Origin: an uncultured archaeon
GTDB taxonomy: Archaea > Aenigmatarchaeota > Aenigmatarchaeia > QMZP01 > JACQNV01
Assembly (NCBI GenBank): GCA_964410585.1
Contig: CAYPFW010000001.1
Span: forward strand, 68,781-132,780
Direction of reading: 5' to 3'
Length of the DNA stretch: 64,000 bases
In this document: positions 10,495-52,161 of the stretch, piece by piece
Position numbering within the stretch: the stretch's first letter is position 1
Layout: every line of letters starts with the position of its first letter
The notes under the pieces: model-generated
The model's input: only the letters and a program-made list of their open reading frames with translations
What the model was told of the DNA's origin: nothing
Databases searched by the model: none
Program-made: the position numbers and the translations under genes

Positions 10495-10495
10495 T

Positions 10496-18272: not shown

Positions 18273-21200
18273 ATGAGAAAAATACTTTTCCTTCCAGTAT
18301 TTTTGCTAATTATCAGTTTTATTGCTCTTCCTAGCCAATCGCAGACAACTTTTAGGATAATGAACGTTAGCTTTTTGTTTGGTGATCCCTATACCGGCGA
18401 CCCATCAACAGGTGTTGATCCAACAAATTTTATAGGTGAGTGTGGTGGTGATTTACCCAAAGTCTGTACAGATCTTGGTTTTACTCTTCCTGAAGGTCCT
18501 GGAAAACAATCTGGTCTAGGTGTCGACAGGACACTTTGTACAAAGTCAGATGGCACTCAAAGTTATCAATACAGTTGCGATATATCTGGAATCAACTCAG
18601 ATAAATTCATCGATAAGATAGATCCGATTAGCAGGGTTCTCACATACAAAAGTGACCAACTCAAAGGTCCGATCCAATACATTCTCCATGATATTCTAAG
18701 CACAGGTTTCCCAAACAATTTAGATCCTTTTGTTTTCACAAAATCTATTCCTCCATTATATTCAACTGTTCAAGTGTTGGCAGAGCCAAATGGTTTAGTA
18801 GTGATAAAACCAGAAGAGGCAGTCAGAAAATACGACAATACAATTGCTTGGAATGATTCTTGCGTTGGCGATCTCAGCGAGCAATTTACAAATGATTTTT
18901 ACAGAATGGACAAGCAGACAGCAGCAAAAAATGGTTTTGAAATAGTTGAAAATTCCTGCACAGGTTTAGTTGGACAAAAACTAAAATATCATGTGCAAGT
19001 TCACCAACGCGGTTTTAACTACGAGAAGCAAAACGTAGAATGCAAACAAGGTGGCTCGCACTACAATCAGTTTTATGCATCAACTGGTCCAGAGCCAATT
19101 CCTTTTCCATACATTGCTATGTGTGAACCAGATTCGGGATACAGACCCTTGCTTTCAAGAGATTATGAACAAACAGGCCAATGGGGTTGGCCAACTTATT
19201 TCCCTCAAAGGCCTCGGCCAGGATCAACATACAGCGCCACAAACCAGTATTCCTTCTGCGAGGCCTTTGACATGGAGTATGAAGATGTCCATGATTCGGC
19301 CGGAAACTTAGTGAGCTACATATTTGGCGCAAGCGATTCTCCAAGATGTTTCCTTTGGCCAGGACCAGGAGACTCTGTAAGCATAAAACAACTTTCAAAA
19401 ATCCTTGTTTGGAATTTCCCATATATTTTCAATCCAGGTAGCTGCGGGGTTTTCGATTCTCTGAGACAGCGACAACAAGGTGGTGGTAAAGCAGGCTTCA
19501 ATGATCCTGCTTCATACAGAAGAGATGCAGCAGACATCATGTGCAAGAAGCCAATTTTGTTCAATAACCCAGATTATGAAGATGCTGAAAGGAGTGGTTC
19601 ATATATTTTCGAGCCAAGCAAAACAAAAACAGATCCCGGTGTCCAATTTTTGAACAATACAGTCAGGCCTTTTTTCGAACAAACAGATCGGTTGAACCAG
19701 GAATATTTTTCTGGCCCAAGCAAATATAGGAAAATTCAGTTCCATCTACCTGTTTTAACTTCAATTGAAGTCACAGATCTTCAAGGAAACATCTTAGCTC
19801 CAAAGCAACAACAGCTCCAAAACACAACAGTGACTTTGTATGGTGTTGAGGTTGGCCAAAAAATAAAAATAAAAGCTAAAGTAAAAGAATTAGACAGTCA
19901 CAATACATCTATCTTTGTTTTCCAGTCAACAAACTTTGGATGGGGAATGTTTGGACCAACGCAAGGCGGACAAGTCCCTATTTTTGGATGCGATTTCATT
20001 GACTCTTCAACATGTTTGCAAGGTGATGTGAATTTCAACAATGTAACCTTGACAGGCCCTCTCCACCAAAACCTAGGAGGCGTAACACAAGAAAAAGAAA
20101 TAGAATTTGTCTATGAAATTCCTTTAACATATCGTGCACCTCTTGTTGGAACAACATCTCTAAATCCAGGTGATCCATATCCTCTGTTTATTGGTTTTGC
20201 AGATGAGTTTAGCAATTTCGATTCTGTAAAAATCCTTTTCGAAATAGTTCCACCAATTTGTGCAAACCAAAAACACGATGCATCTTCAGGTGAAACAGAT
20301 TTGGACTGTGGTGGCCAAACTTGCCCTACTTGCTTAGATGGCCAAAGATGCAACCTAGATTCAGACTGCCAATCTGGCTGGTGCTACTCAGGATCAAATC
20401 TTCCGCCAAAACCACAACCAACATACGGCGACGGCATTTGCCGCACACCAACATGTTCTGATGGAATTCAGAATCAGGGTGAAACAGCTGTAGATTGTGG
20501 CGGTACAAACTGTGCACCTTGTGGTGGTTGTCAAGAAAATTGGATAACCTCGCCTTGGTCTGCATGCAAAGGCGGACAGCAAACACGAATTGTCAGAGAT
20601 ACAAATAGCTGCAATAACCCAACACCTGTGAACCCGCGTCCAGCAACACAAAGGTCTTGTGTTAACTTAGCTGCATGTGTGCCAACACCAAACCAGTGCG
20701 GTGGTTCAAATGGTTGTCAAATCCTTCCTTATTTGAACGGAGTATCTTGTGGATCAAACCAGGCAGGTGTCTGTTTTGCTGGAAGCTGCTATTTGCCAAC
20801 AACTAAAAAACAACCGCCTGTGGGCCAGTGTTTGCAAACAGACTGGTCACCATGCGAAAAACACAGTATCAATAATAAAGTAGGTTTCTACCAAATCAGA
20901 AATGTAGTTAAAGGAAATCTCAATGTTGCATGCACCCAGCTTCCACCAGATCAAAGGCCAGGCGCTGTAAGATCATGTTCGCCTCAGGCAGGTCCTGGTC
21001 CAAGAGATTTGTGTCAACAGTCTTTGATAGCCTCAGGTTTTGACACACGTTTATCAACTGATTTCACATCTCTAGCAAACTTAAACAGTGTTGAAGGATT
21101 CAAAATAGGGAACCAATTCGGTCAAATTGAGTTTTTAGGAAAATCTGACTTGTCTTCAATAGATTGTTCAAAACTAAATAATGTATTCAAAATAGAAAGA

Positions 21201-21578
21201 AACAAAGTTTTCGTTGATACAAAAACCTATCCAACATTTAACCAACAGGCTGTAGTTAGCTTGTTCACAAAAGACATCAAAGACCCAATTGTAAAAACAT
21301 GGGACAACCAGTGCATACAAGTCCAGGTTATACGATGGAATCCAGACACAGGTCTTCTAACTTTCAAGGCGCCGAAGTTTAGTGGTTATCAAGCAGTTGA
21401 AAAAGCAACAAGCGGTTGCACACCGCAAACGCCGCTAGCTTTATTACTGATGCTGATCTTAATACCAATAGGTGCAGTTGGTTTTTTGTTGTTTTACATG
21501 TACTACAGAAACAAAAAACTGCTGGGGCATGAGTTCCTATGGGAGAAGTACGTACAAAGCAAAGGAGACGCTAAATGA
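18273..21578 (+). CDS. large Cys-rich cell-surface protein (1101 aa) with signal peptide and C-terminal TM anchor
   Basis: N-terminal hydrophobic leader; repeated DCGG-x2-C-x2-C modules (DLDCGGQTCPTC, VDCGGTNCAPCGG); C-terminal LALLLMLILIPIGAVGFLLFYMYY followed by basic tail. Confidence 0.8.
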   Translation: MRKILFLPVFLLIISFIALPSQSQTTFRIMNVSFLFGDPYTGDPSTGVDPTNFIGECGGDLPKVCTDLGFTLPEGPGKQSGLGVDRTLCTKSDGTQSYQYSCDISGINSDKFIDKIDPISRVLTYKSDQLKGPIQYILHDILSTGFPNNLDPFVFTKSIPPLYSTVQVLAEPNGLVVIKPEEAVRKYDNTIAWNDSCVGDLSEQFTNDFYRMDKQTAAKNGFEIVENSCTGLVGQKLKYHVQVHQRGFNYEKQNVECKQGGSHYNQFYASTGPEPIPFPYIAMCEPDSGYRPLLSRDYEQTGQWGWPTYFPQRPRPGSTYSATNQYSFCEAFDMEYEDVHDSAGNLVSYIFGASDSPRCFLWPGPGDSVSIKQLSKILVWNFPYIFNPGSCGVFDSLRQRQQGGGKAGFNDPASYRRDAADIMCKKPILFNNPDYEDAERSGSYIFEPSKTKTDPGVQFLNNTVRPFFEQTDRLNQEYFSGPSKYRKIQFHLPVLTSIEVTDLQGNILAPKQQQLQNTTVTLYGVEVGQKIKIKAKVKELDSHNTSIFVFQSTNFGWGMFGPTQGGQVPIFGCDFIDSSTCLQGDVNFNNVTLTGPLHQNLGGVTQEKEIEFVYEIPLTYRAPLVGTTSLNPGDPYPLFIGFADEFSNFDSVKILFEIVPPICANQKHDASSGETDLDCGGQTCPTCLDGQRCNLDSDCQSGWCYSGSNLPPKPQPTYGDGICRTPTCSDGIQNQGETAVDCGGTNCAPCGGCQENWITSPWSACKGGQQTRIVRDTNSCNNPTPVNPRPATQRSCVNLAACVPTPNQCGGSNGCQILPYLNGVSCGSNQAGVCFAGSCYLPTTKKQPPVGQCLQTDWSPCEKHSINNKVGFYQIRNVVKGNLNVACTQLPPDQRPGAVRSCSPQAGPGPRDLCQQSLIASGFDTRLSTDFTSLANLNSVEGFKIGNQFGQIEFLGKSDLSSIDCSKLNNVFKIERNKVFVDTKTYPTFNQQAVVSLFTKDIKDPIVKTWDNQCIQVQVIRWNPDTGLLTFKAPKFSGYQAVEKATSGCTPQTPLALLLMLILIPIGAVGFLLFYMYYRNKKLLGHEFLWEKYVQSKGDAK

Positions 21579-22881: not shown

Positions 22882-24042
22882 CTACTCCTCAAATATTTCT
22901 ACAACCTTATCTTGTTTTTTGTTTATTAAAAGCTCGAAAACGTTCTCATATTTTTGCACATCTAGGCCTTCTTTCTCCAAGTTTTCCCTAAGAAGTTTTT
23001 TTCCAAGTTCTTGGACAGATAATTCTTGTTCCTGTATACTAACTCCACTTAGCTTTTCATCTTGTTTTTCAAAACCGAAATAAAGGAGGCCCTTGTCTCC
23101 ATATTTTATTTTCAACTCATCTGCAAACTTTCCGTCCCTAAGTTTTATTTTCACAAGCGGCGGCTTCAAAAAATTCTCTGAAAAAATTTCTTTTAACTTG
23201 CTTTCAATTTCCTCCTGAGAAGAGTTTTCAAAATTCAAATAAAAAACCTTTCTCTGAGTTTTGAGTTCCTCGAATTTTATTTCATTTGATAAAATACCTT
23301 CAATGCTTCTCTGTATATCGATTTTGTAAACTCTAATAGGTTTTGTTTGACTTGTGATTTGTGTGACAACTAGAGAGCCAGGATGTATGAATGGTTTGTT
23401 GTCGTACATACTTTCTTTCGGTTCATGTATATGACCATTTATGTACAAATCAAAGCCTTTTGGTATTGATTCCTGAGGAAGCAAATGCTCAGCGAAAACA
23501 AAGCCTGAAATTGATTGATGCAACATCAAAATATTATATGTTCCGTCTATTGTTTTTGGATTCCACTGTTTCAAAATATTTTCTGCAAATTGGTCTGGTA
23601 CACCACCCATTCCTTGGACAGCAATTTTCTCCCCATTTTTTTCCAGCACAATTCCGTTACAGTGAAGTTGGACCAAAAAGCCAGCGCGCTCCAAAGCCTC
23701 TACTGGATTTAACAGGCCTTTACTTCTCCTTTCGTGGTTTCCAAAAATTGAAATCACAGGAATCCCATATCCAAATTTTAGATTTTTTGATAAGTCCTTG
23801 TTTATCCCCTCAACAATTTTTGTCTCAGATTTTTTCCCAAAAGCAGACAACAGGTTCTCCATTGTTTTTGTAAAAATTTCTGTGTTTGGTGTCTTGTAAT
23901 CAAAAATATCACCAGCAATCAAAATCAGATCACAGTCTTTGCAAATCTCCATTGCTTCTTCTAAGTTTTCAAAAGCATCTTTTTCCCTTTCTGTACCCTG
24001 ACCAAAACCCAAGTGTATATCTGAGAACAAGCCGATTTTCAT
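22882..24042 (-). CDS. mre11: Mre11/SbcD-family metallophosphoesterase nuclease
   Basis: Phosphoesterase motifs DIHLG, GDIFD, GNHE, LHQ, GHIH in canonical order. Confidence 0.8.
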   Translation of the reverse strand: MKIGLFSDIHLGFGQGTEREKDAFENLEEAMEICKDCDLILIAGDIFDYKTPNTEIFTKTMENLLSAFGKKSETKIVEGINKDLSKNLKFGYGIPVISIFGNHERRSKGLLNPVEALERAGFLVQLHCNGIVLEKNGEKIAVQGMGGVPDQFAENILKQWNPKTIDGTYNILMLHQSISGFVFAEHLLPQESIPKGFDLYINGHIHEPKESMYDNKPFIHPGSLVVTQITSQTKPIRVYKIDIQRSIEGILSNEIKFEELKTQRKVFYLNFENSSQEEIESKLKEIFSENFLKPPLVKIKLRDGKFADELKIKYGDKGLLYFGFEKQDEKLSGVSIQEQELSVQELGKKLLRENLEKEGLDVQKYENVFELLINKKQDKVVEIFEE

Positions 24043-26473: not shown

Positions 26474-29400
26474 TTGATAAATAATGTTATGCTTCAATGT
26501 TTTCTGCAGAAGAAAATAGTTTTTTCATTCTTATTTACAATTATTGTAGTTTCTTCAGTTCTTATTGTTAGAGCTGATGCACAGGGAACGTATACATATT
26601 ATGGCATAACTTTCCAAGAACCGTTGGGCTGGGAAAAGACATTTCCTTTTATAGGAACATTTATTGGTGGGGAAATTTCGCATTCTCAAGAGGTTATGTA
26701 TGAGAAGGATGGTGCTATTATATTTGTTACAAATGGTGGAAATGTACTGCTTTTAGATAAAAGCCCTAGAACATTATCTATAGGCAAAATTGAAGGTTTA
26801 AAGTTTGTATATAGTGATCCAGAGGAAAAAATTGAAGCGGAAGGTTTTGTATTTGATTATAAAGAAAAAGAATATTTTATAACAATTATAAGTAGTACAG
26901 GTATAAAAGAAGCCGATAGAACTGTTTGGAAATCTCTAATAGAAAGCATTAATTTTGGGGATGTTGGTTTATCGCTGCTTTTAGCAGAAGATAGTATAGA
27001 AACCAAAAATGCTATACAATTTTCTCCAGAGATCGACACAGACACAAATAATGAATTTATTCAAAATCTTCAAAAAGACATAAAAACTGTGACAATTGGC
27101 GGTGCCAAAGGAAAATCAAATTTTGATGCTAATTTAGAAAGAACACTTAATCTTGAGAAACTAAATGCCCGTGTATTTGAGAACGGTAAACCCATAGAAT
27201 TTGATGAAAAGGGTGAGCGCAAGGATGTACCTGGTTTGGAAAGAAGCAAAAATGCCAAAGGCCTGGCTCTTGATGTGGTAAAATCAATATATAATAGCCC
27301 TAATTCGGCCCTTAGTTATATTTCCTGGGCCTTTACTAGTTCTGATATTTACAAGATTGGTGAAAAAAATGAAAGAGTTACAAAATTCCTTCAAGAATTA
27401 GACGCAATTGAAGCAGATACACAATTAGAAACAATAAAACAGGTTCATAATCTTGTGGGTAAATATGTTCCTGGATATCTCCCACAGGAAGATAAAGAAG
27501 ATATAGCTACAAATAGTATAGGCGCCGCTATTAAGGATGGAAAAGGAATTTGTCGTGAACAAGCAGCCTTGCTCAAATGGGCATTGGATAAAAAATTAGG
27601 AGGAAAAGCTAATTATAATGCAGAGGTAGTAGGTCAGGACACTACTCATGTTTGGGTTCGTGTAACATTTGATGGTGGACAATTTGATTTAGATACAACC
27701 TGGTTCAAAACTTTTTTCCCACTTGTCCCAAGAGACACTGATAATTGGATGAAATTGTTTTTTTATACAGATGGTTATCTATTTCCATCACGTAACAATG
27801 AAGCAAAATCAATAGATTCAGTCACAGTCAAAGAAGGAGAAATTGAAGAGCAAACAGTCGATCAAGAGACAACAATAGACCAACAAGAAACAAAAAGCGA
27901 CTTTGTACGTACACAATCTCCAATTGACTCATTTTTCAAATTTATTAGTGGTTTATTCACCAGTTTGCTTGGTGGATCACCAACTACACAAACCCAAACA
28001 TCTGAGCCAACAATGAAAGAACCTGGTGATAGTACAGGAATATTTTCTTTCCTTACAGATTGGTTTAAATCAAGACCTCCACAAACAGCTCCTCATGATG
28101 AACAAGGTGATAAGAAAGCGGATTTGGAGAATAAAGATGATAAGAAATCATCAGATAAAGTGATTAAATCTTATTTCACATCAACTTGCCCTAATCCGAC
28201 AACAGATCAAGTAGCCAATGAAGCAGACTACGCAGAAGGTTTCTCTACACCTAAAATACTTGATTTACTTAGAATTTCTGATGATGCCAAAATAGCTTCT
28301 GACTCTACACTTGAAATAGATACATCTTCTTCAACAACTACATTTAGCCTTGCTTCTGGAAGTAGTCTTGTGAATATAAAGAAAATAGATGTGACTGTAG
28401 ATGGAATTAATGTAGATTTGGCTGATATAAGACTTACAGACAAAAGCGGAAAGCTTTTAGGTTCATCAAAACTAGATTCTAGTGGTAAAACAACAATTTC
28501 AACTGACTTCACAATTGGCTCTGATTCTACTAGTAGCAAAATTGATGTGATAGTGGACACAGTTGAGGACTCTACAAGTACGCCTACTGTAACTCTGACA
28601 GGGAAAACATCCACAGATTCCACAATAAAGGGTACGGCAGTCGAAAGCCTTGTACAATACAAAATTAAAGCCGATAATGAAGATGTTTCAGTAAAAGATA
28701 TAACTGTATCCACAGATTCTTCTACTACTCTTGACATTTCCAATATAATACTTATAGATAAGGATGGAAATAGTATAGGATCCTCGGTACCAGATTCTTC
28801 TGATCAAACACCAATTTCAACAACCCTCAACATACCATCTGGTACAGAAGAATTAATAAAAGTAAAGGTTGTTTACAAACAATCAGAATCATCTTCGGCA
28901 CCAGTAGAACCAATGCAAGTCCAGGGTACGTGGAATATTTATAATCTTCCTAATTGGGATGTTATATCAACCACGACACAAAATAGTCAACAGTCAGCTT
29001 CCCTAAGTTCATCCGCAGAAGGCAATCACTTCCACATAAGCTTTGGAAATAACAAATACCCACCGGGCTACTTTGTATTCTATAAGGATGGTGGTGAGAT
29101 TCTAGTTTACGATGCAAATGATCCAACATTGTTTTGCAAACAACAAACTAGAAGCGGGGATAATTGTGGTGATACATCAACTGATACAAATGGTGTCTCG
29201 GGGGATGGATGGTTATATTGGGCTTCTAAAGACGGAAAGCAGGTTAGTAATTCATTAAAGGTTGGAACCCCTGGAAAAAGCCCTCCTTCTCTGATTACAA
29301 TTTCAGCCCAAATAGGCCTGATAACTGCAAAACAAATTTTCAAATTTAAACAATCTCAATCTGGCAGCGAATATACATATCAACTAGAAAGTTTATCTAA

Positions 29401-30895
29401 TTTACCTCTTGTGACTCAGGCACCAAACCCATCAACCGGCTTATCAACAATGTATCTTAATCCTGTAAGAGCAGTATCTCAAGGCGAACAAAGTCCAACT
29501 CTCGCTCCGCTAAGTCTTGGTATATTGAATCTTGATGGAAGCCAGTTTTTCACAGCAACATATGATGATTCATCTAAATCTTTTGTTTTAACAAACAAAC
29601 TAACAGGCCAAACAACAAGCTCTACTAGTCTTAGTGCTTCTGGAAATTGGAGAGTTGGAACAATACAAGTAGGTGGTGCCAGCTATTCTGTAATGGTTTA
29701 TCCATCATCGAGTGCATTCACAATTTTGACACAAAATCCCCAAAACAATATTAATTTGGCTGATGGTTATGTATTGTCTTTTGCCAACACATTTGTAACA
29801 GATCCAGCTACACCAATCACAGCAGAATTGAAAAATAGTGGTGGTACAGTTGTCGCAACAGTGAAATTCTTCATGGGATCAACACCAAGAGTAACAATTA
29901 CACCAACTCCTGGATATTCTTCATCAAATCCATATACTGGGGCAGTTAGTGTATCTTCTGTAACATTGGGTACACCCCAATCAACAACTACAACAACTGG
30001 TCCAACTACATCTGCTGGATTTTCTTTATCCATTGATACTGGGGAACAGCCAACAGAAGCAGAAGAAAATTTAGTTGACAATCTTGCAGATCTTTCCAAA
30101 GCAGCAGAAATGGGCAGGCTTTTGAAAATTTCCTCAAAATCTGATTTAGCTGAAAAATTGAGAACAGTTTGTGGAGATCCTCCTATTGGTGGTTTAACAG
30201 CAGCTATAGTTGGTTCAAATGAAAACAAATGGGCAGGCTGGGCTGTATATGATCCAGAAAAAATGTCTCAGTTTATATTGAACTCTAAAAAAGAATCTTC
30301 TGGTTTGGTTGGTAACTTGATTTCAAAAACACCAATTTCAGGATTTTTGACTGGGATGCAGATAGATTGGTCAACAAATCAAAAACCAAAAGACGATGTT
30401 GGATATTATAGTTGCGGGCATCCTAACAAAGCCACTCAAGACTCAACAAAGCCATGCACTATGGTGCGCAGAGGAGCGTTTTTATCTAATGCATACTCTG
30501 GTGATTCTTGCTCACCCCCTGAAAATGGTGTATGTGTAGGGAACGGTGAACCTATTGAAGCAGACGAAAGACCTCAAGGAAAATTTAAATACTATCAAAG
30601 CTGCAGTTGTGTACCAAAAGATCAGGCTCAGTGCCCTCTAGTACCTTTTATTGATTTAGAAGAAGGTAATTTGAATATAAATAGGGATTCGGATAACGAT
30701 GGCTTAAAGGATTTTGAAGAACGTATTTTCAATACTAACCCAAATGATCCAACTGATCCTATAGAAAACCCAAACAGAAATTTGGCCTTTATAATTTTGG
30801 TTGACGACGAAAACTTCGATGAAGTAAAAGAGTGTTTGATGGCATCCCTAGCACCTGGCGGAACAGTAGGTAGTGGTGGAACTGCCGTTGGTTAA
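26474..30895 (+). CDS. giant Ser/Thr-rich surface protein (1473 aa) with transglutaminase-like core and conserved C-terminal tail
   Basis: Signal peptide; GKGICREQAALLKW ... DTTHVWVRV ... DLDTTW gives a Cys-His-Asp arrangement; long S/T-rich repeats; DSDNDGLKD acidic motif; ends APGGTVGSGGTAVG. Confidence 0.8.
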   Translation: MINNVMLQCFLQKKIVFSFLFTIIVVSSVLIVRADAQGTYTYYGITFQEPLGWEKTFPFIGTFIGGEISHSQEVMYEKDGAIIFVTNGGNVLLLDKSPRTLSIGKIEGLKFVYSDPEEKIEAEGFVFDYKEKEYFITIISSTGIKEADRTVWKSLIESINFGDVGLSLLLAEDSIETKNAIQFSPEIDTDTNNEFIQNLQKDIKTVTIGGAKGKSNFDANLERTLNLEKLNARVFENGKPIEFDEKGERKDVPGLERSKNAKGLALDVVKSIYNSPNSALSYISWAFTSSDIYKIGEKNERVTKFLQELDAIEADTQLETIKQVHNLVGKYVPGYLPQEDKEDIATNSIGAAIKDGKGICREQAALLKWALDKKLGGKANYNAEVVGQDTTHVWVRVTFDGGQFDLDTTWFKTFFPLVPRDTDNWMKLFFYTDGYLFPSRNNEAKSIDSVTVKEGEIEEQTVDQETTIDQQETKSDFVRTQSPIDSFFKFISGLFTSLLGGSPTTQTQTSEPTMKEPGDSTGIFSFLTDWFKSRPPQTAPHDEQGDKKADLENKDDKKSSDKVIKSYFTSTCPNPTTDQVANEADYAEGFSTPKILDLLRISDDAKIASDSTLEIDTSSSTTTFSLASGSSLVNIKKIDVTVDGINVDLADIRLTDKSGKLLGSSKLDSSGKTTISTDFTIGSDSTSSKIDVIVDTVEDSTSTPTVTLTGKTSTDSTIKGTAVESLVQYKIKADNEDVSVKDITVSTDSSTTLDISNIILIDKDGNSIGSSVPDSSDQTPISTTLNIPSGTEELIKVKVVYKQSESSSAPVEPMQVQGTWNIYNLPNWDVISTTTQNSQQSASLSSSAEGNHFHISFGNNKYPPGYFVFYKDGGEILVYDANDPTLFCKQQTRSGDNCGDTSTDTNGVSGDGWLYWASKDGKQVSNSLKVGTPGKSPPSLITISAQIGLITAKQIFKFKQSQSGSEYTYQLESLSNLPLVTQAPNPSTGLSTMYLNPVRAVSQGEQSPTLAPLSLGILNLDGSQFFTATYDDSSKSFVLTNKLTGQTTSSTSLSASGNWRVGTIQVGGASYSVMVYPSSSAFTILTQNPQNNINLADGYVLSFANTFVTDPATPITAELKNSGGTVVATVKFFMGSTPRVTITPTPGYSSSNPYTGAVSVSSVTLGTPQSTTTTTGPTTSAGFSLSIDTGEQPTEAEENLVDNLADLSKAAEMGRLLKISSKSDLAEKLRTVCGDPPIGGLTAAIVGSNENKWAGWAVYDPEKMSQFILNSKKESSGLVGNLISKTPISGFLTGMQIDWSTNQKPKDDVGYYSCGHPNKATQDSTKPCTMVRRGAFLSNAYSGDSCSPPENGVCVGNGEPIEADERPQGKFKYYQSCSCVPKDQAQCPLVPFIDLEEGNLNINRDSDNDGLKDFEERIFNTNPNDPTDPIENPNRNLAFIILVDDENFDEVKECLMASLAPGGTVGSGGTAVG

Positions 30896-30924: not shown

Positions 30925-31575
30925 ATGATCACCAAAAAATATCTCCCAATAATAATTCTTGTCATGGGAATAGTTTTAGTCTCAGGTTGCTCTCAACCCC
31001 CAACTAATCAAACAACAGATCAACCACAAAACACAGCTGAACCTCTAACACAACCTTCTGATGAATCGAATCCAGTAGATGAGAATCCTCCTGAAATAAC
31101 TCAACCAGAAATCAAAGAAGAACCAAAGGTTGAGCCGAAAAAAGTTGTTCCAAAGGGACATTTTGATTTTGTCAATGGAGATACATGGGAGCCAACTGCT
31201 TTTGCTTTTGGAGTCAAACTTCATCTAATAGTTGCAGGCGATGGGAAAAATTTCAATGTCCCTAAATTTTTGCCTATAAATGTCAGAATACTTCTTAGAA
31301 ATGCGATTGTCTGGTCTTATTTAATTCAAGGATCTGCTGAACAAACGTGCAGGGATGAAACAGGATGCAGCCCAGAAAACGGTGAAACTTTTGAGGCAAC
31401 AGATGATTGGAAAGTAGGTTCTTTGAAATTTATAGCAACAGACGAAGAGGGTAATCTTTTAGCATACGAAGAATATCAAGACGGAGAGTTTGTAACCAAT
31501 GGAGAAGAGGGTGTTGAGGTTGCTTCAACTGCACCGGGTGGAACTATTGGGGGAAGTGGAACAGGAGTAGGGTAG
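30925..31575 (+). CDS. Pro-rich lipoprotein sharing the C-terminal domain of the upstream giant protein
   Basis: Lipobox LVSGC; CSPENG motif; ends APGGTIGGSGTGVG. Confidence 0.65.
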   Translation: MITKKYLPIIILVMGIVLVSGCSQPPTNQTTDQPQNTAEPLTQPSDESNPVDENPPEITQPEIKEEPKVEPKKVVPKGHFDFVNGDTWEPTAFAFGVKLHLIVAGDGKNFNVPKFLPINVRILLRNAIVWSYLIQGSAEQTCRDETGCSPENGETFEATDDWKVGSLKFIATDEEGNLLAYEEYQDGEFVTNGEEGVEVASTAPGGTIGGSGTGVG

Positions 31576-31585
31576 TAGTTTATTA

Positions 31586-34228
31586 CTAAGTTAGGACTTT
31601 TGGTTTTCCTATCTGTTCTTCTATATATCTTCCTCCGGATGTTTGTTTTAATGATGGTCTTCTAAAGGCCAGCTGATGTCCTTCATCTAGATACGTTCTA
31701 GCTAAATCTATTTCTCCTCTTTCTAGATGCACGTATGCTATGTTAGCAAGAGCTGCTATCTGAACTTCTTCTGTTCCAGACTCTCTAGAAAACCGAAGAG
31801 CGTCTTGGGAATGTTCTAATAAACCGTTCAAGTTACCCCTTTGAGATTCTAAAAATGCCCAGTCGTTTTTGATAATTGCCATGACTACTCTCTTTTCTAA
31901 ACGTTCTGCTATAGAAAATGCTAGTTGATAATGTTTCTCTGCTTGTTCATAATTAGTCTCATTACTATATGTCAATGCTGTTCTATGTTGAGCATTGGCA
32001 AGATGAACAGAATCGATTGCTGGAACTCTGTTGATAATATTATTATAAAAACTTCTAGCCTTTTCATATTCTGATTTATTTAAATAACACGTTCCTAATC
32101 CGACTAGCGCATGCAAAACAAAATCCTCGTCTCCAACTTGTTCTGCTAATAGCTTACCCTTTTCAAACATTTGAATGGCTTCATCTGGATTTGTTCTCAT
32201 TACTGCTGCACCAAATCCAATCAAAGCCTGATACTCGTTTATTTGGGTCAATTCCCTCAAATCAGCGACAATTCCCAATCTTTCCTCTTGCGAACTTCGC
32301 CTCTCCTCGTGTAAGCCCATATCCCTGTATGTGTTTCCAAGTTCTCTGAGAACTTCGAGTCTTTGTCCTTTTGTGTTTAGATCATCCTTTCCGATTTTTA
32401 ATATCTCCAACGCCGTCCTCAAATGTTCTTCGCTCGTCTCAGTCTTTCCATCCTCTCTTTCCATCTTTCCAAGCTCAACCAAATAAGCGACAGCCCTTTC
32501 AGGTGAATCTGAAAGCACATACTGGTTTGCTGTGTTCAAAAGCAAGGCCTTTGTTTTTCTTTCCTTCCACTTCCTTTCAAACAGTTCTCCAAGCTCTCTG
32601 TGTATTTTTTTCTTCTCATCTGGTGGAGTTGTTTCATACAAAATGTCAAAAATCTTTTCATCAACTGCTTGTATTGTTTCCTCTTTTCCCTTTTCTTTTG
32701 GTGGTTTGGTTATCAGTCCGGCCTTACTCATTTTTTCAATTGTTTCTGGGTCCAAACTCTCGCCTGAAACTTCCTCTATATCACTCAAATAGACCCACTG
32801 TCTTCTCACATGCGAACCGACCCTCAAAAACCTGAAAGCAGAAGGCCCATATTCCTGTATTCTTCCAACTATAAGCGAGCCGAGCTCATTTGGTATTTCA
32901 GTCAATGCTGCCCTATAATCTGCTCCTGTTTCAATCTTCTGCCTTAAAGCAATTCCAATTTGTTTTGTATAAAATGGGTTTCCTTTTGTCCTTTCAACAA
33001 TCTCGCAAACTGTTTCCCCATCTAGTTTTGAAAAATGGTCTCCAAGAATTTCTTTCAAAATGCTTTCAAGGTCTTTTCTCTCAAGTGGACCAATTTCTAT
33101 TTTTTCAACTGGAAAATCAGGCTCAAATTCAGGCCTTGCTGTCAAAACATTGACTATACCAGTTGGTGAAGACCGCACAAGGTCAAGCCAGAAAGGTGGA
33201 GCCCATTGAACATCGTCTGAAAGGACAGTATTGATAATTCCTCTAACCTTGTAATAAGCTTCCATTGTTTTCATTCTTCTTACATCGGGATCAGTAGGTA
33301 TATCATATCCAGAAACACTTATCCCAAGCGGCAAAGCGATAAATGGATATTCTTCTTTCAGTCCAAGCCTTGTAAGCTTTTCTACAGTTAGGTCGTCTCC
33401 GAAAACTGTCCTATAGAAATTCCTCAAACCAGAATTTGGATCTGTCCTGTCCGGTGGACTAAATTTCAAAAGAGTATGTGGTCCAAGTGCCTTTTTCGCA
33501 GTTGCTGTTTTTCCAATTCCAGGCTCTCCAATTAGAACAACAGGCAGATCTTTGCTTGTTTTCAAATATTGTCTTATCCTGCTTATTGTTTCTGCTCTTC
33601 CAAAAAAACTATCCTTTAAAGACTGGACATCAAAAGCTGTGTGTATTTCCCTTACTGGTCTGTAAACATGAATAGGATGTGTTAATCCTTTTACTGGAAC
33701 CTCACCAAGATCCTCCCACTCAAAAAGCCTGTCTGCAAGTTCCCTTGTTCTTTGATCGACTCTAACTGTCCCCAATTCAGCCGAGCTTTCCAATCTTGTG
33801 GCAACAGACATAGGGAAGCCGTTTATGTCTGGAAGAAACCTATCTCCTTCATAGTATCCACCAAATTCTACGCGTCCTGTTGATATACCTATCCTAGCTC
33901 TCAATGTATCGCCCCCTAATCCTAGTTCCTTTCTCTTTTCCTCTATTTTTTCCTGCATCTTCAGGCTTGATCGTGTAGCAGCAACTGCTCCTTCTTTCAG
34001 ATCTTTGAGAGGCTGTTCGACATTAAATGACACAGTTGTTGCATCCCCGTCCCTTTTCAATGCAACTCCGCCATGTCTCATAGCAACTGCATTTGCTGCC
34101 CCTAAAATTTGATAAGGAACTTCCCTCATTTGATGCGTTTCTGCACCTTCAGAAAAAGTGGAGAATCCACTCATGTCTAACTTTAGTACTGTTCCTTCCT
34201 TTTGATAAATATCTAGCCTGGAGTCCAT
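31586..34228 (-). CDS. class III nucleotidyl cyclase domain - P-loop NTPase - TPR repeat signalling protein (880 aa)
   Basis: N-terminal cyclase-homology features (LDMSGFSTFSE ... ARIGISTGRVEFGG), Walker A VLIGEPGIGKT, C-terminal TPR-like repeats. Confidence 0.8.
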   Translation of the reverse strand: MDSRLDIYQKEGTVLKLDMSGFSTFSEGAETHQMREVPYQILGAANAVAMRHGGVALKRDGDATTVSFNVEQPLKDLKEGAVAATRSSLKMQEKIEEKRKELGLGGDTLRARIGISTGRVEFGGYYEGDRFLPDINGFPMSVATRLESSAELGTVRVDQRTRELADRLFEWEDLGEVPVKGLTHPIHVYRPVREIHTAFDVQSLKDSFFGRAETISRIRQYLKTSKDLPVVLIGEPGIGKTATAKKALGPHTLLKFSPPDRTDPNSGLRNFYRTVFGDDLTVEKLTRLGLKEEYPFIALPLGISVSGYDIPTDPDVRRMKTMEAYYKVRGIINTVLSDDVQWAPPFWLDLVRSSPTGIVNVLTARPEFEPDFPVEKIEIGPLERKDLESILKEILGDHFSKLDGETVCEIVERTKGNPFYTKQIGIALRQKIETGADYRAALTEIPNELGSLIVGRIQEYGPSAFRFLRVGSHVRRQWVYLSDIEEVSGESLDPETIEKMSKAGLITKPPKEKGKEETIQAVDEKIFDILYETTPPDEKKKIHRELGELFERKWKERKTKALLLNTANQYVLSDSPERAVAYLVELGKMEREDGKTETSEEHLRTALEILKIGKDDLNTKGQRLEVLRELGNTYRDMGLHEERRSSQEERLGIVADLRELTQINEYQALIGFGAAVMRTNPDEAIQMFEKGKLLAEQVGDEDFVLHALVGLGTCYLNKSEYEKARSFYNNIINRVPAIDSVHLANAQHRTALTYSNETNYEQAEKHYQLAFSIAERLEKRVVMAIIKNDWAFLESQRGNLNGLLEHSQDALRFSRESGTEEVQIAALANIAYVHLERGEIDLARTYLDEGHQLAFRRPSLKQTSGGRYIEEQIGKPKVLT

Positions 34229-34335
34229 AGCTTCCTCTAAATGTATATACTAAAAGGTAGTGTACGAAAGCTTAAATGTTTTGAAAGGAACCTAAAGTGT
34301 AAACATTTATATAGAAGTGTGTACAATAATGAAAT

Positions 34336-34647
34336 ATGAAGACAAAATTGCTTACAACCAGGATGTCAGAAGAAATGGAAAAGGATATAGATAGGCTAGC
34401 CAAGGAAGAAAATGTCCAGAAAACAGTTTTGATGAGGGAGCTTTTGACAAGAGGTTTGCAGGATTTGAAAGAAGAACACGCACTTAAACTTTATTCGCAG
34501 GGAAGGGTAACTTTGTGGAAAGCCGCAGGATTGGCTGGTCTGTCTCTCTGGGAAATTTTGGAAAAAGTGAAAGAAAAGAAAATCCCTCTTATTTATGATA
34601 TAGAAGATGCCAAACACGATATTAAAATCGTTCTGGACAATTTATGA
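34336..34647 (+). CDS. UPF0175-family antitoxin-like protein
   Basis: Small protein, 4-nt overlap with downstream DUF3368-like gene; real start may be the internal MSEEME. Confidence 0.55.
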   Translation: MKTKLLTTRMSEEMEKDIDRLAKEENVQKTVLMRELLTRGLQDLKEEHALKLYSQGRVTLWKAAGLAGLSLWEILEKVKEKKIPLIYDIEDAKHDIKIVLDNL

Positions 34648-35141
34648 ATGCTGTTAGCAATTCAACTCCCCTGATATATTTGTCAAAGTTGAACAAACTA
34701 GAAGAATTGCAAAAATTTTTTGAGAAAATTTATATTCCAGAAGCAGTGTATAGGGAAGTTGTCATAAAAGGAAAGGAGTTGAACAAACTAGAAGTTATTG
34801 TGATTGAAAAATTAATGAGCGAAAAATTTATAATTGTTGAAAAAACAAATCCAAAACTCGAAATAAAAACTTTGCATATTGGAGAATTGGAAGCTATAAG
34901 TTTGGCACAAGAGAAAAAAATACAAAACATACTTATTGACGACAAAGAAGGTGTTGAAGTCTCAAAAATTGTTGGGCTGAATCCATGGAGAACAACTGCA
35001 ATTTTATTGGGTTTATTAAAACTAAAAGTCATCAAACCAGATGAGTTCAAATCCTTGTTAATTGATCTCAGTAAATCAGGATATTTCATTTCGGCTGAGA
35101 TATTTGATTATTTAATAAGGGAATCCAAAAAGCTATTATGA
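34644..35141 (+). CDS. DUF3368 / PIN-like toxin-like protein
   Basis: N-terminal NSTPLIYLSKLNKLEEL motif typical of the DUF3368 partner of UPF0175. Confidence 0.55.
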   Translation: MNAVSNSTPLIYLSKLNKLEELQKFFEKIYIPEAVYREVVIKGKELNKLEVIVIEKLMSEKFIIVEKTNPKLEIKTLHIGELEAISLAQEKKIQNILIDDKEGVEVSKIVGLNPWRTTAILLGLLKLKVIKPDEFKSLLIDLSKSGYFISAEIFDYLIRESKKLL

Positions 35142-36571
35142 AAAATAAAAAAACAAACTTCTCTGAATGGTTTACTGAAATTTTGCAAGATGGGGAACTG
35201 TCAGACATCAGATACAATGTAAAAGGTTTTATTGTCTATAGGCCTTGGGCTACAATAGCAATCAAAAAAATGTATGCTTTGTATGAAAAAGAATTGGAGA
35301 AAAAAGGACATAAACCAGTGATCTTCCCTTCTGTTATTCCTGAAGAGAACTTCCATTTAGAGGCTTCGCATGTTGCTGGTTTCACGCCAGAGGTTTTGTG
35401 GATCACACATGGAGGCGACTCTCCACTAGAGGAAAAAATCGCATTGAGACCAACATCAGAAACAGCAATGTACAAAATGTATTCTTTGTGGATTCGTTCT
35501 TGGAAAGACCTTCCTTTGAAACTTTACCAATCTTGTCAAGTTTGGCGACATGAAACAAAGGCAACTAGACCATTTATCCGAGGCAGGGAATTCCATTGGA
35601 TAGAAACACATGATGTTTTTGCAACAAAAGAAGAAGCTGAAAACCAAGTGAAGGAGGACATGGAAACAACAGAATCTGTAATGCACAAAATATTTGGCAT
35701 CCCTTTCCTGTTTATGAAGCGCCCAGAGTGGGACAAATTTCCAGGAGCTGTCCATACATTTGCAGCAGACACAATTATGCCAGACGGGAAAATTTTGCAG
35801 CAGCCTTCCACACATTTGTTGGGCCAAAATTTCTCAAAACCATTTGGAATAAAATTCAAAACTCAAAAAGAAGAAGACGAGTTTGGATGGCAAACATGCT
35901 ACGGTCCTGCGATTTCCAGGATTTTTGCATCTGTTGTAGCTTTACATGGGGATGACAAAGGTTTGGTTTTTCCATTTGACATTGCCCCTGTGCAAATAAT
36001 TGTTGTGCCAATTTCAAGAGAAGGTGATGAAAAAGTTTTGAAAACAGCCAAAGAACTCGCTTGCAATCTTGCTGAAAAGTATAGAACAGAAATTGACCTT
36101 TCAGAAAATACTCCAGGATGGAAATTCAATCAATGGGAAATGAAAGGTGTTCCAATAAGGATAGAATTGGGGTCAAAAGAAGTAGACGCGGGCACACTAA
36201 CTCTAGCTTTCAGACATTCTGGAAAAAAGGTCCAAGTAAAAGAATCAGAAATTTTTGGCGAAATAGAAAAATTTGGAAAAGAAATCACGAAAGAGCTTGT
36301 TGAAAAGGCAGACAAATTTTTCAAGGAAAATTTGAGGGATGCCTATGAAATGGAGGACCTGGAAAAAGAGCTTGCAAAGGGTGGTCTTGTACGAGTGCCT
36401 TTTTGTTCAACTCAAAAATCAGGCCAAAAATGTGGAGAAGCAATTAAGGAAAAGCTCCACGCAGATATCAGAGGAGAGTGGATAGTTGAAAAGGCAAGGC
36501 CAGAAGCGAATAAATGTGTGGTCTGTGGCTCAAAAGCAGCGCATATGGTCTATATAGGAAAAGCATATTAA
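35138..36571 (+). CDS. proS: prolyl-tRNA synthetase, archaeal/eukaryotic type
   Basis: NFSEWFTEILQDGEL N-terminus, class II core, C-terminal zinc-binding CVVCGSKAAHMVYIGKAY. Confidence 0.9.
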   Translation: MKNKKTNFSEWFTEILQDGELSDIRYNVKGFIVYRPWATIAIKKMYALYEKELEKKGHKPVIFPSVIPEENFHLEASHVAGFTPEVLWITHGGDSPLEEKIALRPTSETAMYKMYSLWIRSWKDLPLKLYQSCQVWRHETKATRPFIRGREFHWIETHDVFATKEEAENQVKEDMETTESVMHKIFGIPFLFMKRPEWDKFPGAVHTFAADTIMPDGKILQQPSTHLLGQNFSKPFGIKFKTQKEEDEFGWQTCYGPAISRIFASVVALHGDDKGLVFPFDIAPVQIIVVPISREGDEKVLKTAKELACNLAEKYRTEIDLSENTPGWKFNQWEMKGVPIRIELGSKEVDAGTLTLAFRHSGKKVQVKESEIFGEIEKFGKEITKELVEKADKFFKENLRDAYEMEDLEKELAKGGLVRVPFCSTQKSGQKCGEAIKEKLHADIRGEWIVEKARPEANKCVVCGSKAAHMVYIGKAY

Positions 36572-37244: not shown

Positions 37245-37323
37245 GGAAGCCGTAATTTTTTCGAGCTTGCAGGCGAAGAAAAAATAGGCTCCGTTTTTGA
37301 TTAACCTTTTGGACTAAAAGGTT
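37245..37323 (+). promoter_or_regulatory. conserved leader element, copy A (upstream of spt4)
   Basis: GGAAGCCGTAATTTTTTCGAGC...GCGAAGAAAAAATAGGCTCCGTTTTTGATTAACCTTTTGGACTAAAAGGTT then ATG; carries compensatory changes relative to copies B-E. Confidence 0.6.
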
Positions 37324-37591: not shown

Positions 37592-37673
37592 GGAAGGCGT
37601 TTAAAATTTTTTCGAACAGCAGTGAGAAAAAATTTAGCCTCCTGTTTTGGTTAAGCTTTTAGGATAAAAGGTT
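37592..37673 (+). promoter_or_regulatory. conserved leader element, copy B (upstream of rps24e)
   Basis: GGAAGGCGTTTAAAATTTTTTCGAAC...AGAAAAAATTTAGCCTCCTGTTTTGGTTAAGCTTTTAGGATAAAAGGTT then ATG. Confidence 0.6.
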
Positions 37674-38663: not shown

Positions 38664-38745
38664 GGAAGGCGTAAAAATTTTCGAGTTGAGACGAAGAAAA
38701 TTTTAGCCTCCTTTTTGGATTAACCCTTTTCTCAAAAAGGGTTAT
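38664..38745 (+). promoter_or_regulatory. conserved leader element, copy C (upstream of the tRNA 3' segment)
   Basis: GGAAGGCGTAAAAATTTTCGAG...GAAGAAAATTTTAGCCTCCTTTTTGGATTAACCCTTTTCTCAAAAAGGGTTAT. Confidence 0.55.
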
Positions 38746-49716: not shown

Positions 49717-49798
49717 GGAAGGCGTAAAATTTTTCCGAGCAACAGCGAAGAAAAATTTAGCCTCCTGTTTTGCTTAAGCTTTTGGGACAAAAGCTTAT
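49717..49798 (+). promoter_or_regulatory. conserved leader element, copy D (upstream of rpl14)
   Basis: GGAAGGCGTAAAATTTTTCCGAGC...GCGAAGAAAAATTTAGCCTCCTGTTTTGCTTAAGCTTTTGGGACAAAAGCTTAT then ATG. Confidence 0.6.
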
Positions 49799-50197
49799 AT
49801 GAAGGGACTTTCAGCTAACATCACAAAAGGACTTGGAACAAAATCCATACTCACATGTATAGACAATACAGGTGCAAAAGAATTGGAAATAATATCTGTC
49901 CGAGGATTCAAGGGTAAAAGAAGGACAAAACCAAGAGCAGGCGTCGGTGACCAAGTCACATGCAGAGTGAAAAGGGGAGTTGAAAAAGTCAGGCACGAAA
50001 TGTTCAAAGTTGTGATTGTTAGGCAAACAAAAGAATACAGAAGGTTTGATGGAACAAGAATAAGCTTTGAAGACAATGCAGGTGTAATAATCAATGAAAT
50101 GGGTGAGCCAACAGGAACCCTTTTGAAAGGCCCAATTGCAAAAGAAGCTGTGGAAAGATTCCCAACAGTTGGAAAGTTGGCATCAATAATAATTTGA
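49799..50197 (+). CDS. rpl14: ribosomal protein L14 (uL14)
   Basis: CIDNTGAKELEIISV ... AGVGDQVTCRVK ... GPIAKE motifs. Confidence 0.9.
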   Translation: MKGLSANITKGLGTKSILTCIDNTGAKELEIISVRGFKGKRRTKPRAGVGDQVTCRVKRGVEKVRHEMFKVVIVRQTKEYRRFDGTRISFEDNAGVIINEMGEPTGTLLKGPIAKEAVERFPTVGKLASIII

Positions 50198-52083: not shown

Positions 52084-52161
52084 GGAAGGCGTAATTTTTT
52101 GCAAGCAACAGCGAAGCAAAAAATAGCCTCCGTTTTTGCTTAAGCTTTTGACTAAAAGCTT
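52084..52161 (+). promoter_or_regulatory. conserved leader element, copy E (upstream of rps14)
   Basis: GGAAGGCGTAATTTTTTGCAAGC...GCGAAGCAAAAAATAGCCTCCGTTTTTGCTTAAGCTTTTGACTAAAAGCTT then ATG. Confidence 0.6.

Follow-up and report, generated by a model that had tools for sequence, protein, structure and literature searches.

The locus raises two questions: what is done by an archaeal protein that joins a nucleotidyl cyclase-like N-terminus to a P-loop NTPase and TPR repeats, and does it form, with an adjoining toxin–antitoxin pair, a horizontally acquired stress or defence island, as the original prediction supposed? The open reading frame in question (31586–34228, minus strand) lies in the 64-kb stretch of DNA that was analysed (hereafter the window). 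It is complete, maximal and opened by ATG, and its 880-aa product (hereafter P0001) is real, since a 600-kb NCBI contig encodes an identical protein. The AlphaFold2 model of P0001 has a mean pLDDT of 86.5.

[quoted passage not shown] The Pfam model Guanylate_cyc (PF00211) covers residues 13–185 (E 5.6e-10, 39.5 bits, cut-off 21.9), P. aeruginosa CyaB scores best among PDB sequences (3r5g, E 1e-18, 28% identity), and the modelled domain superposes on the same structure in Foldseek (TM 0.90, rmsd 1.7 Å, 192 columns). Used alone as a homology query, the domain (residues 1–200) gave no match at E ≤ 0.001. Its signature residues (D18, K58, D62, R112, D134, S141 at the Asn position, R145 and K180) read DKDRDSRK against the canonical DKDRDNRK, which is carried by 12 family representatives. 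Both metal-binding residues, D18 and D62, are kept (Asp at these columns in 111/114 and 113/114 relatives, respectively), the Arg and Lys contacts are retained and the ATP-type Lys/Asp pair is present, with K58 four residues ahead of D62 and D134 three residues ahead of G137. The catalytic residues are therefore not absent from the alignment: seven of the eight positions that were scored have the canonical residue, and the sole change is Asn to Ser.

This change affects the Asn that stabilizes the transition state. An ungapped alignment of GFPMSVATR with GREVNLASR of CyaB places Ser141 (codon 33806–33808, minus strand) at its position, and the N-x-x-x-R motif becomes S141-V-A-T-R145, with the Arg in place. 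Of 114 family representatives, 104 have Asn and five have Ser in this column; P0121, the closest homologue, likewise has Ser. Some active class III cyclases, e.g. Rv1900c, can dispense with the Asn (PMC4886424). Because the Asn is not universal in active enzymes, Ser141 weakens the case for full activity, while class III membership stands. Judged from these residues, the domain appears to be near-canonical and probably makes cAMP.

The central part (residues 208–556; 32561–33607, minus strand) corresponds to a STAND nucleotide-binding oligomerization core (NBD-HD-WHD), as indicated by Foldseek and by conserved columns. The top Foldseek match of the whole model is the STAND-TPR protein PH0952 (6mfv; E 5.5e-14, 698 columns). 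All NTPase motifs are intact: (i) the P-loop VLIGEPGIGKT (residues 231–241) includes the Walker A motif GEPGIGKT, read from the sequence at residues 234–241 (33506–33529, minus strand) with K240/T241; (ii) the Walker B strand TVLSDD (residues 334–339; 33212–33229, minus strand) consists of a modelled β-strand (334–337) followed by D338/D339; and (iii) R365 (the sensor-1 Arg), G416-x-P418 and H543 are all present. Among 53 homologues, G237, G239, K240, D339, R365, G416, P418, R456 and H543 are invariant or nearly so; K240, D339 and R365 are each invariant (53/53), as are the GxP motif (G416-N-P418) and the WHD His (H543). Of the annotations expected from the original prediction, Guanylate_cyc and TPR are found, while Pfam AAA_16 matches only residues 208–247, at 23.6 bits against a curated cut-off of 32.6 (P0121 clears it with 35.2 bits). 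The NTPase assignment therefore stands on motif conservation and predicted fold, which identify P0001 as a predicted STAND NTPase of the MalT/AAA_16 type.

The remaining part (residues 560–873; 31610–32551, minus strand) comprises an arm and a TPR sensor of ∼17 helices, as assigned by Pfam TPR models and the predicted fold. TPR_12 (3.3e-18), TPR_1, TPR_2 and TPR_MalT match residues 680–854, and the arm/TPR region is modelled as helical hairpins throughout, with pLDDT mostly >90. No Pfam match to an HTH domain was found in P0001, and the TPR runs to residue 873 at the C-terminus. The domain reading of a class III cyclase, a P-loop NTPase and C-terminal TPR repeats is thus correct, and P0001 unites a three-domain architecture and its predicted fold with intact NTPase motifs and a near-canonical catalytic signature.

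Exhaustive searching shows that the archaeal branch to which P0001 belongs consists of three clusters only. Homologues outside them share ∼25% identity and belong to a large bacterial cyclase–AAA_16–TPR family, hundreds of whose members are colinear in this architecture; homologues with a named source are all bacterial, except P0002, which is from an archaeon. Viral and metagenome contigs scanned with a two-sequence alignment contained no new branch member; apart from the P0121 lineage, all matches were distant homologues (22–30% identity), and a scan of genome contigs gave only a partial relative, DATDTO010000029.1, from an archaeon. The bacterial proteins, annotated as 'class 3 adenylate cyclase/predicted ATPase/TPR', share with P0001 the order of cyclase, AAA_16-type STAND core and TPR sensor as well as the NTPase motifs, and single alignments with them cover residues 10–850 of P0001. 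P0001 differs from them in its low identity (20–28%), its length (880 versus ∼1100 aa), the Asn to Ser change, its archaeal host and the lack of the N-terminal SAM or zinc-ribbon domain that many of them carry. These sequence comparisons place P0001 in a rare, very divergent DPANN archaeal branch of the bacterial family; it is a divergent archaeal representative of a protein type already known, and no new kind of system.

Within the branch, P0001 and P0121 share 40% identity in the cyclase domain, 40% in the NBD, 47.5% in the HD-WHD and 38% in the TPR region. Identity is thus even across domains, which indicates that the cyclase domain is not decaying faster than the rest. In P0121 the transition-state Arg is changed to Lys and ∼30 residues are inserted, and P0143, of the third lineage, is without the first ∼145 residues of the cyclase domain, with its STAND-TPR frame still open. 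This loss suggests that cyclase activity may be non-essential in this branch.

Characterized proteins resemble P0001 in part. The M. tuberculosis proteins Rv0386, Rv1358 and Rv2488c (Mclx) consist of a cyclase, an AAA/NB-ARC and a LuxR HTH domain; as in P0001, a class III cyclase-homology domain stands at the N-terminus and is fused to an ATPase of the STAND type. Rv0386 has adenylyl cyclase activity, whereas Mclx2 and Mclx3 are without the canonical Lys/Asp pair, which P0001 keeps, Mclx3 is also without the transition-state Asn, and both have been proposed to be regulators, not cyclases (PMC4452763). Membership of P0001 in Mclx was ruled out by the missing C-terminal LuxR-type HTH, and membership in the TOMM kinase/cyclase group was considered and ruled out by Pfam, PADLOC and NCBIfam searches. 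CyaB, the closest solved cyclase domain, shares with P0001 the metal-binding Asp residues and the Lys, Arg and Lys positions. Its second substrate residue is Thr and its Asn is intact, where P0001 has Asp134 and Ser141; 3r5g is the isolated catalytic domain only and is therefore silent on STAND ATPase fusions. The best structural match across NBD-HD-WHD, arm and TPR is P. horikoshii PH0952, although sequence identity of P0001 to PH0952 and E. coli MalT is ∼15%, and the effector of these two proteins is a DNA-binding domain (ArsR-like or LuxR-like) where P0001 has its cyclase. The PH0952/MalT switch passes from a closed ADP form, through inducer binding to the TPR sensor, to opening and multimerization (PMC6468293). 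We adopted its double autoinhibition and multimerization as a model for P0001 (PMC6468293).

With somewhat more confidence than doubt, we read P0001 as a cytoplasmic STAND signal-transduction ATPase with an N-terminal class III adenylyl cyclase output that is switched by the TPR sensor. At rest, the TPR sensor and arm would keep the ADP-bound NBD-HD-WHD core closed; ligand binding to the TPR sensor would relieve this autoinhibition, ATP would replace ADP and P0001 would multimerize. Class III cyclases require head-to-tail dimers for their active sites, and multimerization would pair the N-terminal domains into such dimers, which would then make cAMP from ATP. ATP is the predicted substrate because of the Lys58/Asp134 pair, and turnover would probably be slow because Ser141 replaces the transition-state Asn. 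We infer ligand gating, multimerization-driven activation, the nature of the product and any downstream reader from this model; to our knowledge, no TPR-sensor family member has been shown biochemically to be activated by multimerization.

Several findings speak against a cyclase output: Ser141, the Arg to Lys change and insertion in P0121, the truncation of P0143 and the absence of a cNMP-binding protein among the ∼45 window ORFs scanned, which represent about a tenth of the genome. A Metallophos gene (22882–24042) was rejected as a candidate cAMP phosphodiesterase and looks Mre11-like. The domain might instead make no cyclic nucleotide and serve a STAND scaffold as a module for dimerization or ATP binding, the real output being protein–protein interaction via the multimer. 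We regard this as rather unlikely, though worth weighing. The substitution at Ser141, the further changes in P0121 and the loss of most of the domain from an otherwise open frame in P0143 all fit it, as does the proposed regulatory role of Mclx2 and Mclx3, which are similar in architecture and without canonical residues (PMC4452763). Set against this are the seven canonical positions, both metal-binding Asp and the Lys/Asp pair included, the equal conservation of the cyclase and NTPase domains between P0001 and P0121 (40% each) and the existence of active class III cyclases without the Asn (PMC4886424).

The antitoxin-like UPF0175 gene (34336–34647, plus strand) encodes 103 aa, or 90 aa from an alternative start at 34375; its product matches Pfam UPF0175 (2.3e-14), PADLOC PDC-S70 (8e-10) and, at residues 9–48 and under the cut-off, an NCBIfam RelB-like RHH model (3.5e-6). 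The COG2405/DUF3368 PIN-like toxin gene (34644–35141, plus strand; 165 aa) is assigned by a full-length PDC-S70 match in PADLOC (1.7e-24) and by precomputed Pfam PF11848. Judged by position only, E81/E83 and D99/D100 are present in this protein, but residues 1–19, where the first PIN Asp is expected, show no acidic residue. The COG2405 family keeps a variable number of active-site residues, and UPF0175 has been reported exclusively adjoining COG2405, a pairing already described (PMC5499597). Like the known COG2405–UPF0175 pair and PDC-S70, the two genes here are small and overlapping with the antitoxin first; unlike the known pair, they are joined to the ProRS transcription unit, the PIN-like gene overlapping the antitoxin stop at one end and the ProRS start codon at the other, each time by 4 nt. 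By sequence family, they are assigned to a recognized type of type II toxin–antitoxin system.

The original prediction was right about the adjacency and families of this pair, but in terms of transcription the pair is not downstream of the cyclase gene: the two units diverge across a 107-bp spacer (34229–34335). This spacer contains TTTATATA at 34308–34315, ∼25 nt upstream of the antitoxin ATG, and AGAGGA 5–10 nt upstream of the cyclase ATG, which we take as a putative promoter and a putative ribosome-binding site. The cyclase gene is flanked by a secreted-protein gene and by the UPF0175/PIN-like pair, with the housekeeping genes ProRS, RpoE′, Spt4 and S24e close by. The best named matches of the window ProRS are from Aenigmarchaeota/Aenigmatarchaeota (62–63% identity), and by this gene the host, a small-genome DPANN archaeon, is Aenigmatarchaeota-like. 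In the closest ProRS relative (71% identity), the order ProRS–RpoE′–Spt4–S24e recurs on a contig that stops 208 bp upstream of ProRS, and the ProRS genes of more distant relatives have unrelated neighbours. At the relative locus L002, the flanking proteins have no BLAST similarity to those of the window. Linkage of the pair to the cyclase gene is seen in neither of the only two relatives, P0121 and P0143; the pair appears to be an independent toxin–antitoxin module and an unrelated neighbour of the cyclase gene.

A joint and recent arrival of the cyclase gene and the pair by horizontal transfer would be expected to leave an atypical composition, and an Arg/Gly/Leu-rich composition and deviating codon use had indeed been claimed. 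Quantitative analysis contradicts both the claim and the acquisition deduced from it. The cyclase gene has a GC of 0.400 and a GC3 of 0.297 (window genes 0.30–0.41 and 0.20–0.41, respectively), and its synonymous codon usage, ranked here among 60 window genes, is typical (z = −1.02, rank 13/60). The amino-acid composition of P0001 ranks 52/60 in distance from the window mean, i.e. closer to it than 51 of the 59 others; Arg is at 7.4% (75th percentile), Lys at 6.5% (20th percentile), Gly and Leu are unremarkable, and seven window genes, P0001 included, have an R/(R+K) at or above its value. In addition, the 64-kb window contains no tRNA gene, no flanking direct repeats were found around the cyclase/toxin–antitoxin segment, and no integrase or transposase domain was found among the ∼45 window ORFs scanned. 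The pair is of a family reported to be predominantly archaeal (PMC12988326) and is without cyclase-gene linkage in relatives. The rarity of class III cyclases in archaea (PMC8646023) and the bacterial origin of all source-named homologues but P0002 are what a recent foreign island can draw on. This reading is already largely refuted, and we give it hardly any credence. The nearest bacterial homologue is only ∼25% identical, so any transfer must be old; an old transfer of the cyclase gene from bacteria is plausible on phyletic grounds only.

A defence role meets similar difficulties. P0001 might be an antiviral (Avs-/NLR-like) STAND protein whose TPR senses a viral protein and whose cyclase emits a Pycsar/CBASS-like alarm, in a defence island with the toxin–antitoxin pair. 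STAND-TPR architecture is common to Avs systems, PADLOC matches P0001 to PycC (E 2.4e-10) and otherwise only to a generic TPR model, and the adjoining pair matches PDC-S70, an archaeal-enriched candidate of a sort in which DPANN genomes are enriched; PDC-S70 is, however, itself a candidate without experimental validation (PMC12988326). P0001, with ∼40% identity to its nearest relative, is far more diverged than RtcB: at 90% identity, the window RtcB clusters together with its counterpart from the P0002-encoding genome. Immune sensors typically diverge fast. However, PycC (38 bits) does not outscore the generic Pfam cyclase model (39.5 bits), the Lys/Asp pair predicts ATP and not a pyrimidine nucleotide as substrate, and no adjacent gene encodes an effector with a cNMP-binding domain, which rules out membership in Pycsar; no PADLOC Avs NTPase or sensor model matches P0001 and there is no defence-island context, which rules out membership in Avs. 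Among ten other window proteins tested, PADLOC gave no match within ∼15 kb, only a SoFic-like gene 25 kb off and, at a distance of 20 kb, a match to MzaA through a generic sigma domain. With the pair not adjacent in P0121 and P0143, no tRNA gene or repeats, and housekeeping neighbours, the proposed stress or defence island falls away, a defence-island link of P0001 is not supported, and we consider the antiviral reading very improbable. A broader variant, in which P0001 is an NLR-like immune or symbiosis sensor whose fast-evolving TPR would recognize a viral or host-cell protein, whose STAND core would multimerize and whose cyclase would emit cAMP or another cNMP to an effector, is a long shot.

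Archaeal cAMP production is poorly understood, and class III cyclases have been reported to be very rare in archaea (PMC8646023). If P0001 were an immune or symbiosis sensor, cyclic-nucleotide signalling by a class III cyclase would operate in DPANN archaea, for which no such signalling has been described. Our results indicate that a near-canonical class III cyclase coupled to a STAND switch is present in at least one DPANN lineage, and that its gene has been retained for long enough to match the genome completely in composition. P0001 is thus a compact, soluble candidate for asking whether archaea use class III cyclase signalling, and for probing the still unproven idea that STAND multimerization activates a fused cyclase by induced dimerization.

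The 880-aa protein under study (P0001; 31586-34228, − strand; the longest frame available from an ATG) has the architecture of the original prediction, i.e. a class III cyclase joined to a P-loop NTPase and TPR repeats. The Pfam model Guanylate_cyc matches residues 13-185 (E 5.6e-10; 39.5 bits against a gathering score of 21.9), a cluster of TPR models covers residues 680-854 (TPR_12, 3.3e-18) and the motif VLIGEPGIGKT lies at residues 231-241; AAA_16 matches the P-loop region only (residues 208-247), at 23.6 bits and under its cut-off of 32.6. In a 53-sequence alignment, the following residues of P0001 are invariant or nearly so: Walker A (G234, G237, G239, K240 and T/S241), Walker B (D/E338 and D339, closing the model strand 334-337), R365 (sensor 1), G416-x-P418, R456 and H543. 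The AlphaFold2 model of P0001 has a mean pLDDT of 86.5 and a pTM of 0.64, and the top Foldseek match of the whole model is PH0952 of Pyrococcus horikoshii (6mfv; E 5.5e-14 over 698 aligned columns), a STAND ATPase with a TPR sensor. In the PDB, a profile of the family further picks up the TPR regions of AfsR and PH0952.

The closest solved relative of the cyclase domain is the catalytic domain of Pseudomonas aeruginosa CyaB (3r5g; E 1e-18, 28% identity), on which the P0001 model superposes with a TM score of 0.90 and an rmsd of 1.7 Å over 192 columns. Residue roles were read from a local alignment with CyaB that needed no gaps, and from family alignments of 53 and 114 sequences: D18 and D62 bind metal, K58 and D134 form an ATP-type, substrate-specifying Lys/Asp pair, R112 and K180 contact phosphate, R145 is the transition-state Arg and S141 stands at the position of the transition-state Asn. 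The catalytic residues that the predicted cyclase calls for are hence present, every listed role being filled apart from this Asn-to-Ser change. The resulting signature is DKDRDSRK, against a canonical DKDRDNRK in 12 family representatives, and column 141 holds Asn in 104 and Ser in five of 114 sequences. In mammalian cyclase, mutants of this Asn stay active, with a kcat that is one to two orders of magnitude lower. The Asn is also missing from some active class III enzymes, e.g. Rv1900c (PMC4886424), and from Mclx3 (Rv2488c), a protein of related architecture (PMC4452763). The most economical reading of the P0001 residues is that of an adenylyl cyclase that would be attenuated yet functional.

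A word-indexed search returned one partial homologue at 41% identity (HLD56913.1, 'archaeon'), all others being at 21-30%. The latter are for the most part cyclase-AAA_16-TPR proteins with a SAM or zinc-ribbon domain; the annotation of some reads 'class 3 adenylate cyclase/predicted ATPase', and where a source is named it is bacterial (Acidimicrobiia and Limnocylindrales). An exhaustive HMMER search of 1.84 billion cluster representatives found 5,754 proteins at E ≤ 1e-10, led by P0001 itself, the partial relative P0002 (525 bits) and P0143 (475 bits), with none of the rest above 136 bits; scans of metagenome and viral contigs yielded no further member of this branch. The closest full-length homologue, P0121 (925 aa), comes from Rifle-type groundwater assemblies and is 39% identical to P0001 end to end, evenly across domains (cyclase 40%, NBD 40%, HD-WHD 47.5% and TPR 38%). 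Like P0001, it carries Ser in place of the Asn; it differs in having Lys for the transition-state Arg and ∼30 inserted residues. In P0143, the third lineage (L008:300-2725, + strand), the cyclase domain is cut to its last ∼50 residues, which continue in frame into a STAND-TPR part that is intact, and the gene caller placed the start at the Walker A Met; nothing cyclase-like lies upstream. Either the cyclase module was lost naturally in P0143 or the gene is a pseudogene.

The composition of the gene gives no sign of the foreign origin proposed earlier, when P0001 was thought to be Arg/Gly/Leu-rich and horizontally acquired. Among 60 non-overlapping window ORFs of at least 100 aa, its GC (0.400; window genes 0.30-0.41), GC3 (0.297; 0.20-0.41) and synonymous codon choice (z = −1.02, rank 13 of 60 by likelihood under the codon usage pooled from the remaining genes) are typical, and its amino-acid distance from the window mean (rank 52 of 60) places it nearer the average than most. 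Arg is at 7.4% (75th percentile) and Lys at 6.5% (20th percentile), Gly and Leu do not stand out, and seven genes, its own included, reach its R/(R+K) value. Set against these ORFs, the gene shows no compositional sign of recent transfer. The source-named homologues are all bacterial except the 'archaeon' entry P0002, and PMC8646023, in a statement citing Bassler et al. 2018, reports class III cyclases as very rare in archaea; on purely phyletic grounds, therefore, an old bacterial transfer into this DPANN lineage is plausible. Such a transfer was not recent, given that the nearest bacterial protein is ∼25% identical and that the compositional match is complete. A protein identical to P0001 is on record from run ERR3478686 and from an NCBI contig of 600 kb.

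The neighbours are archaeal in type: ProRS with ProRS-C_1, RpoE' (SHS2_Rpb7-N and S1), Spt4, S24e, S4e, RtcB and archease. The best named relatives of ProRS are from Candidatus Aenigmarchaeota/Aenigmatarchaeota (62-63% identity), then Micrarchaeota and Marsarchaeota; its best match overall is at 71%. The source of the window is hence a DPANN archaeon and probably Aenigmatarchaeota-like. To our knowledge, sigma factors are not used by archaea. Residues 10-305 of an 835-aa protein (53665-56172, + strand) are nonetheless a bacterial-type sigma-70 close to the bacterial primary factor, with Pfam sigma regions 1.2, 2, 3 and 4, a best PDB match to Escherichia coli RpoD (E 7e-53), NCBIfam RpoD and MzaA matches that both fall below cut-off, and ∼530 matchless residues after the sigma part; its codon usage is typical of the window (z = 0.9) and the rest of the gene set is archaeal. 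Genes with ATP-citrate-lyase/citryl-CoA-type domains (9304-11389 and 12811-13557, both + strand; ATP-grasp_2 with Citrate_bind, CoA_binding with Ligase_CoA, and a citrate synthase C-terminal domain) point to a capacity in central carbon metabolism that is notable for so small a DPANN genome.

The toxin-antitoxin pair said to follow the cyclase gene is indeed adjacent to it, and instead of following it diverges from it across a 107-bp spacer. The UPF0175 antitoxin gene (34336-34647, + strand; 2.3e-14) overlaps by 4 nt the gene of a 165-aa PIN-like toxin (34644-35141, + strand; DUF3368 by precomputed annotation; full-length match to the PADLOC PDC-S70 toxin model, 1.7e-24), which in turn overlaps the start codon of ProRS (35138-36571, + strand) by 4 nt. 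This places the pair in the ProRS-RpoE'-Spt4-S24e gene string, and from gene arrangement it therefore appears to share a transcript with ProRS, which is an essential housekeeping gene. The toxin lacks an acidic residue among residues 1-19, the stretch in which a first PIN Asp would be expected. The pairing of UPF0175 with COG2405 has long been recognized as a predicted toxin-antitoxin family (PMC5499597); its PADLOC entry, PDC-S70, is an unvalidated, predominantly archaeal candidate of a kind enriched in DPANN genomes (PMC12988326).

A 22-nt motif, TAGSCTCC-N2-TTTTGRTTAASC, occurs five times in the window (0.06 expected), always on the + strand (37285-37306, 37635-37656, 38704-38725, 49758-49779 and 52124-52145). 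It ends ∼18-20 nt upstream of the start codon where one is evident (Spt4, S24e and the gene at 49799), and in copies 1-3 a short AACCTTTT...AAAAGGTT-type hairpin separates it from the ATG. The motif probably serves translation and transcription genes as a strong promoter or leader element.

The suggestion that cyclase and toxin-antitoxin genes form a stress or defence island finds no support. The five P0121 loci are flanked by a 571-aa protein, riboflavin synthase and an 872-aa secreted protein, with the nearest toxin-antitoxin genes (HicAB) more than 6 kb off, and the UPF0175/PIN pair was not found in the 3.7 kb available for the P0143 locus. The window contains no tRNA genes, and the segment has neither direct nor inverted repeats at its borders. 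PADLOC matched two of ten other window proteins: the sigma-domain protein 20 kb off (to the sigma portion of MzaA) and a SoFic-like Fic gene 25 kb off. Coincidence best explains the position of the pair. The Fic/DOC protein also carries HTH_17 (59365-60339, − strand; SoFic 7.7e-39, also PDC-S04), and SoFic is reported to be enriched in DPANN archaea (PMC12988326). As for known defence systems, Pycsar was rejected (PycC match of 38 bits, no better than a generic cyclase score), as was Avs (no PADLOC Avs model matched P0001).

The only neighbour conserved next to this family is a 216-aa lipoprotein-like gene (30925-31575, + strand) convergent with the cyclase gene; a 32%-identical homologue lies tail-to-tail with P0143 (L008:2722-3420, − strand). 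We read this as residual synteny, since the genomes are related and genes in convergent orientation do not share a transcript. This protein and its neighbour (26474-30895, + strand), both secreted or lipoprotein-like and encoded downstream of the cyclase gene, have near-identical Gly-rich C-terminal tails, APGGTIGGSGTGVG and APGGTVGSGGTAVG, and the 872-aa protein convergent with P0121 (L002:12775-15393, − strand) has a loosely similar one, PVGGEAGGGTQA; these tails could act as a signal for sorting or anchoring. Elsewhere, the sole Pfam match of an 1101-aa protein (18273-21578, + strand) is Nup98-96 autopeptidase S59 (residues 935-999; 29.1 bits, cut-off 28.4), and it may be self-cleaving and secreted.

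Two other functions were weighed for P0001. The main rival to an active enzyme is a pseudo-cyclase scaffold, which we consider unlikely in view of the catalytic residues; it is kept alive by the branch itself, where two lineages conserve the cyclase module and P0143 has lost it. Less likely again is the reading of P0001 as an antiviral sensor whose output is a cyclic nucleotide. As for downstream partners, no cNMP-binding, GAF or CARF domain was found by Pfam among ∼45 window ORFs, which is weak negative evidence as the window is about a tenth of the contig. Separately, a Metallophos gene (22882-24042), considered as a cAMP phosphodiesterase, resembles Mre11 instead.

For the gating of P0001 we adopt the PH0952/MalT switch, in which an ADP-bound NBD-HD-WHD core is held closed by the arm and the TPR sensor, inducer binding frees it in two steps, and nucleotide exchange and multimerization come afterwards (PMC6468293). 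At rest, the arm and TPR sensor of P0001 would clamp its closed, ADP-bound core; an inducer would release it in two steps, leading to nucleotide exchange and multimerization. Class III cyclases build their active sites across a dimer interface, which makes induced proximity of the N-terminal domains the obvious coupling, and we infer that the P0001 multimer would engage the cyclase in this way. P0001 belongs, as a divergent archaeal member, to a known cyclase-STAND-TPR family and is most probably a ligand-gated, multimerization-activated adenylyl cyclase of lower catalytic efficiency.
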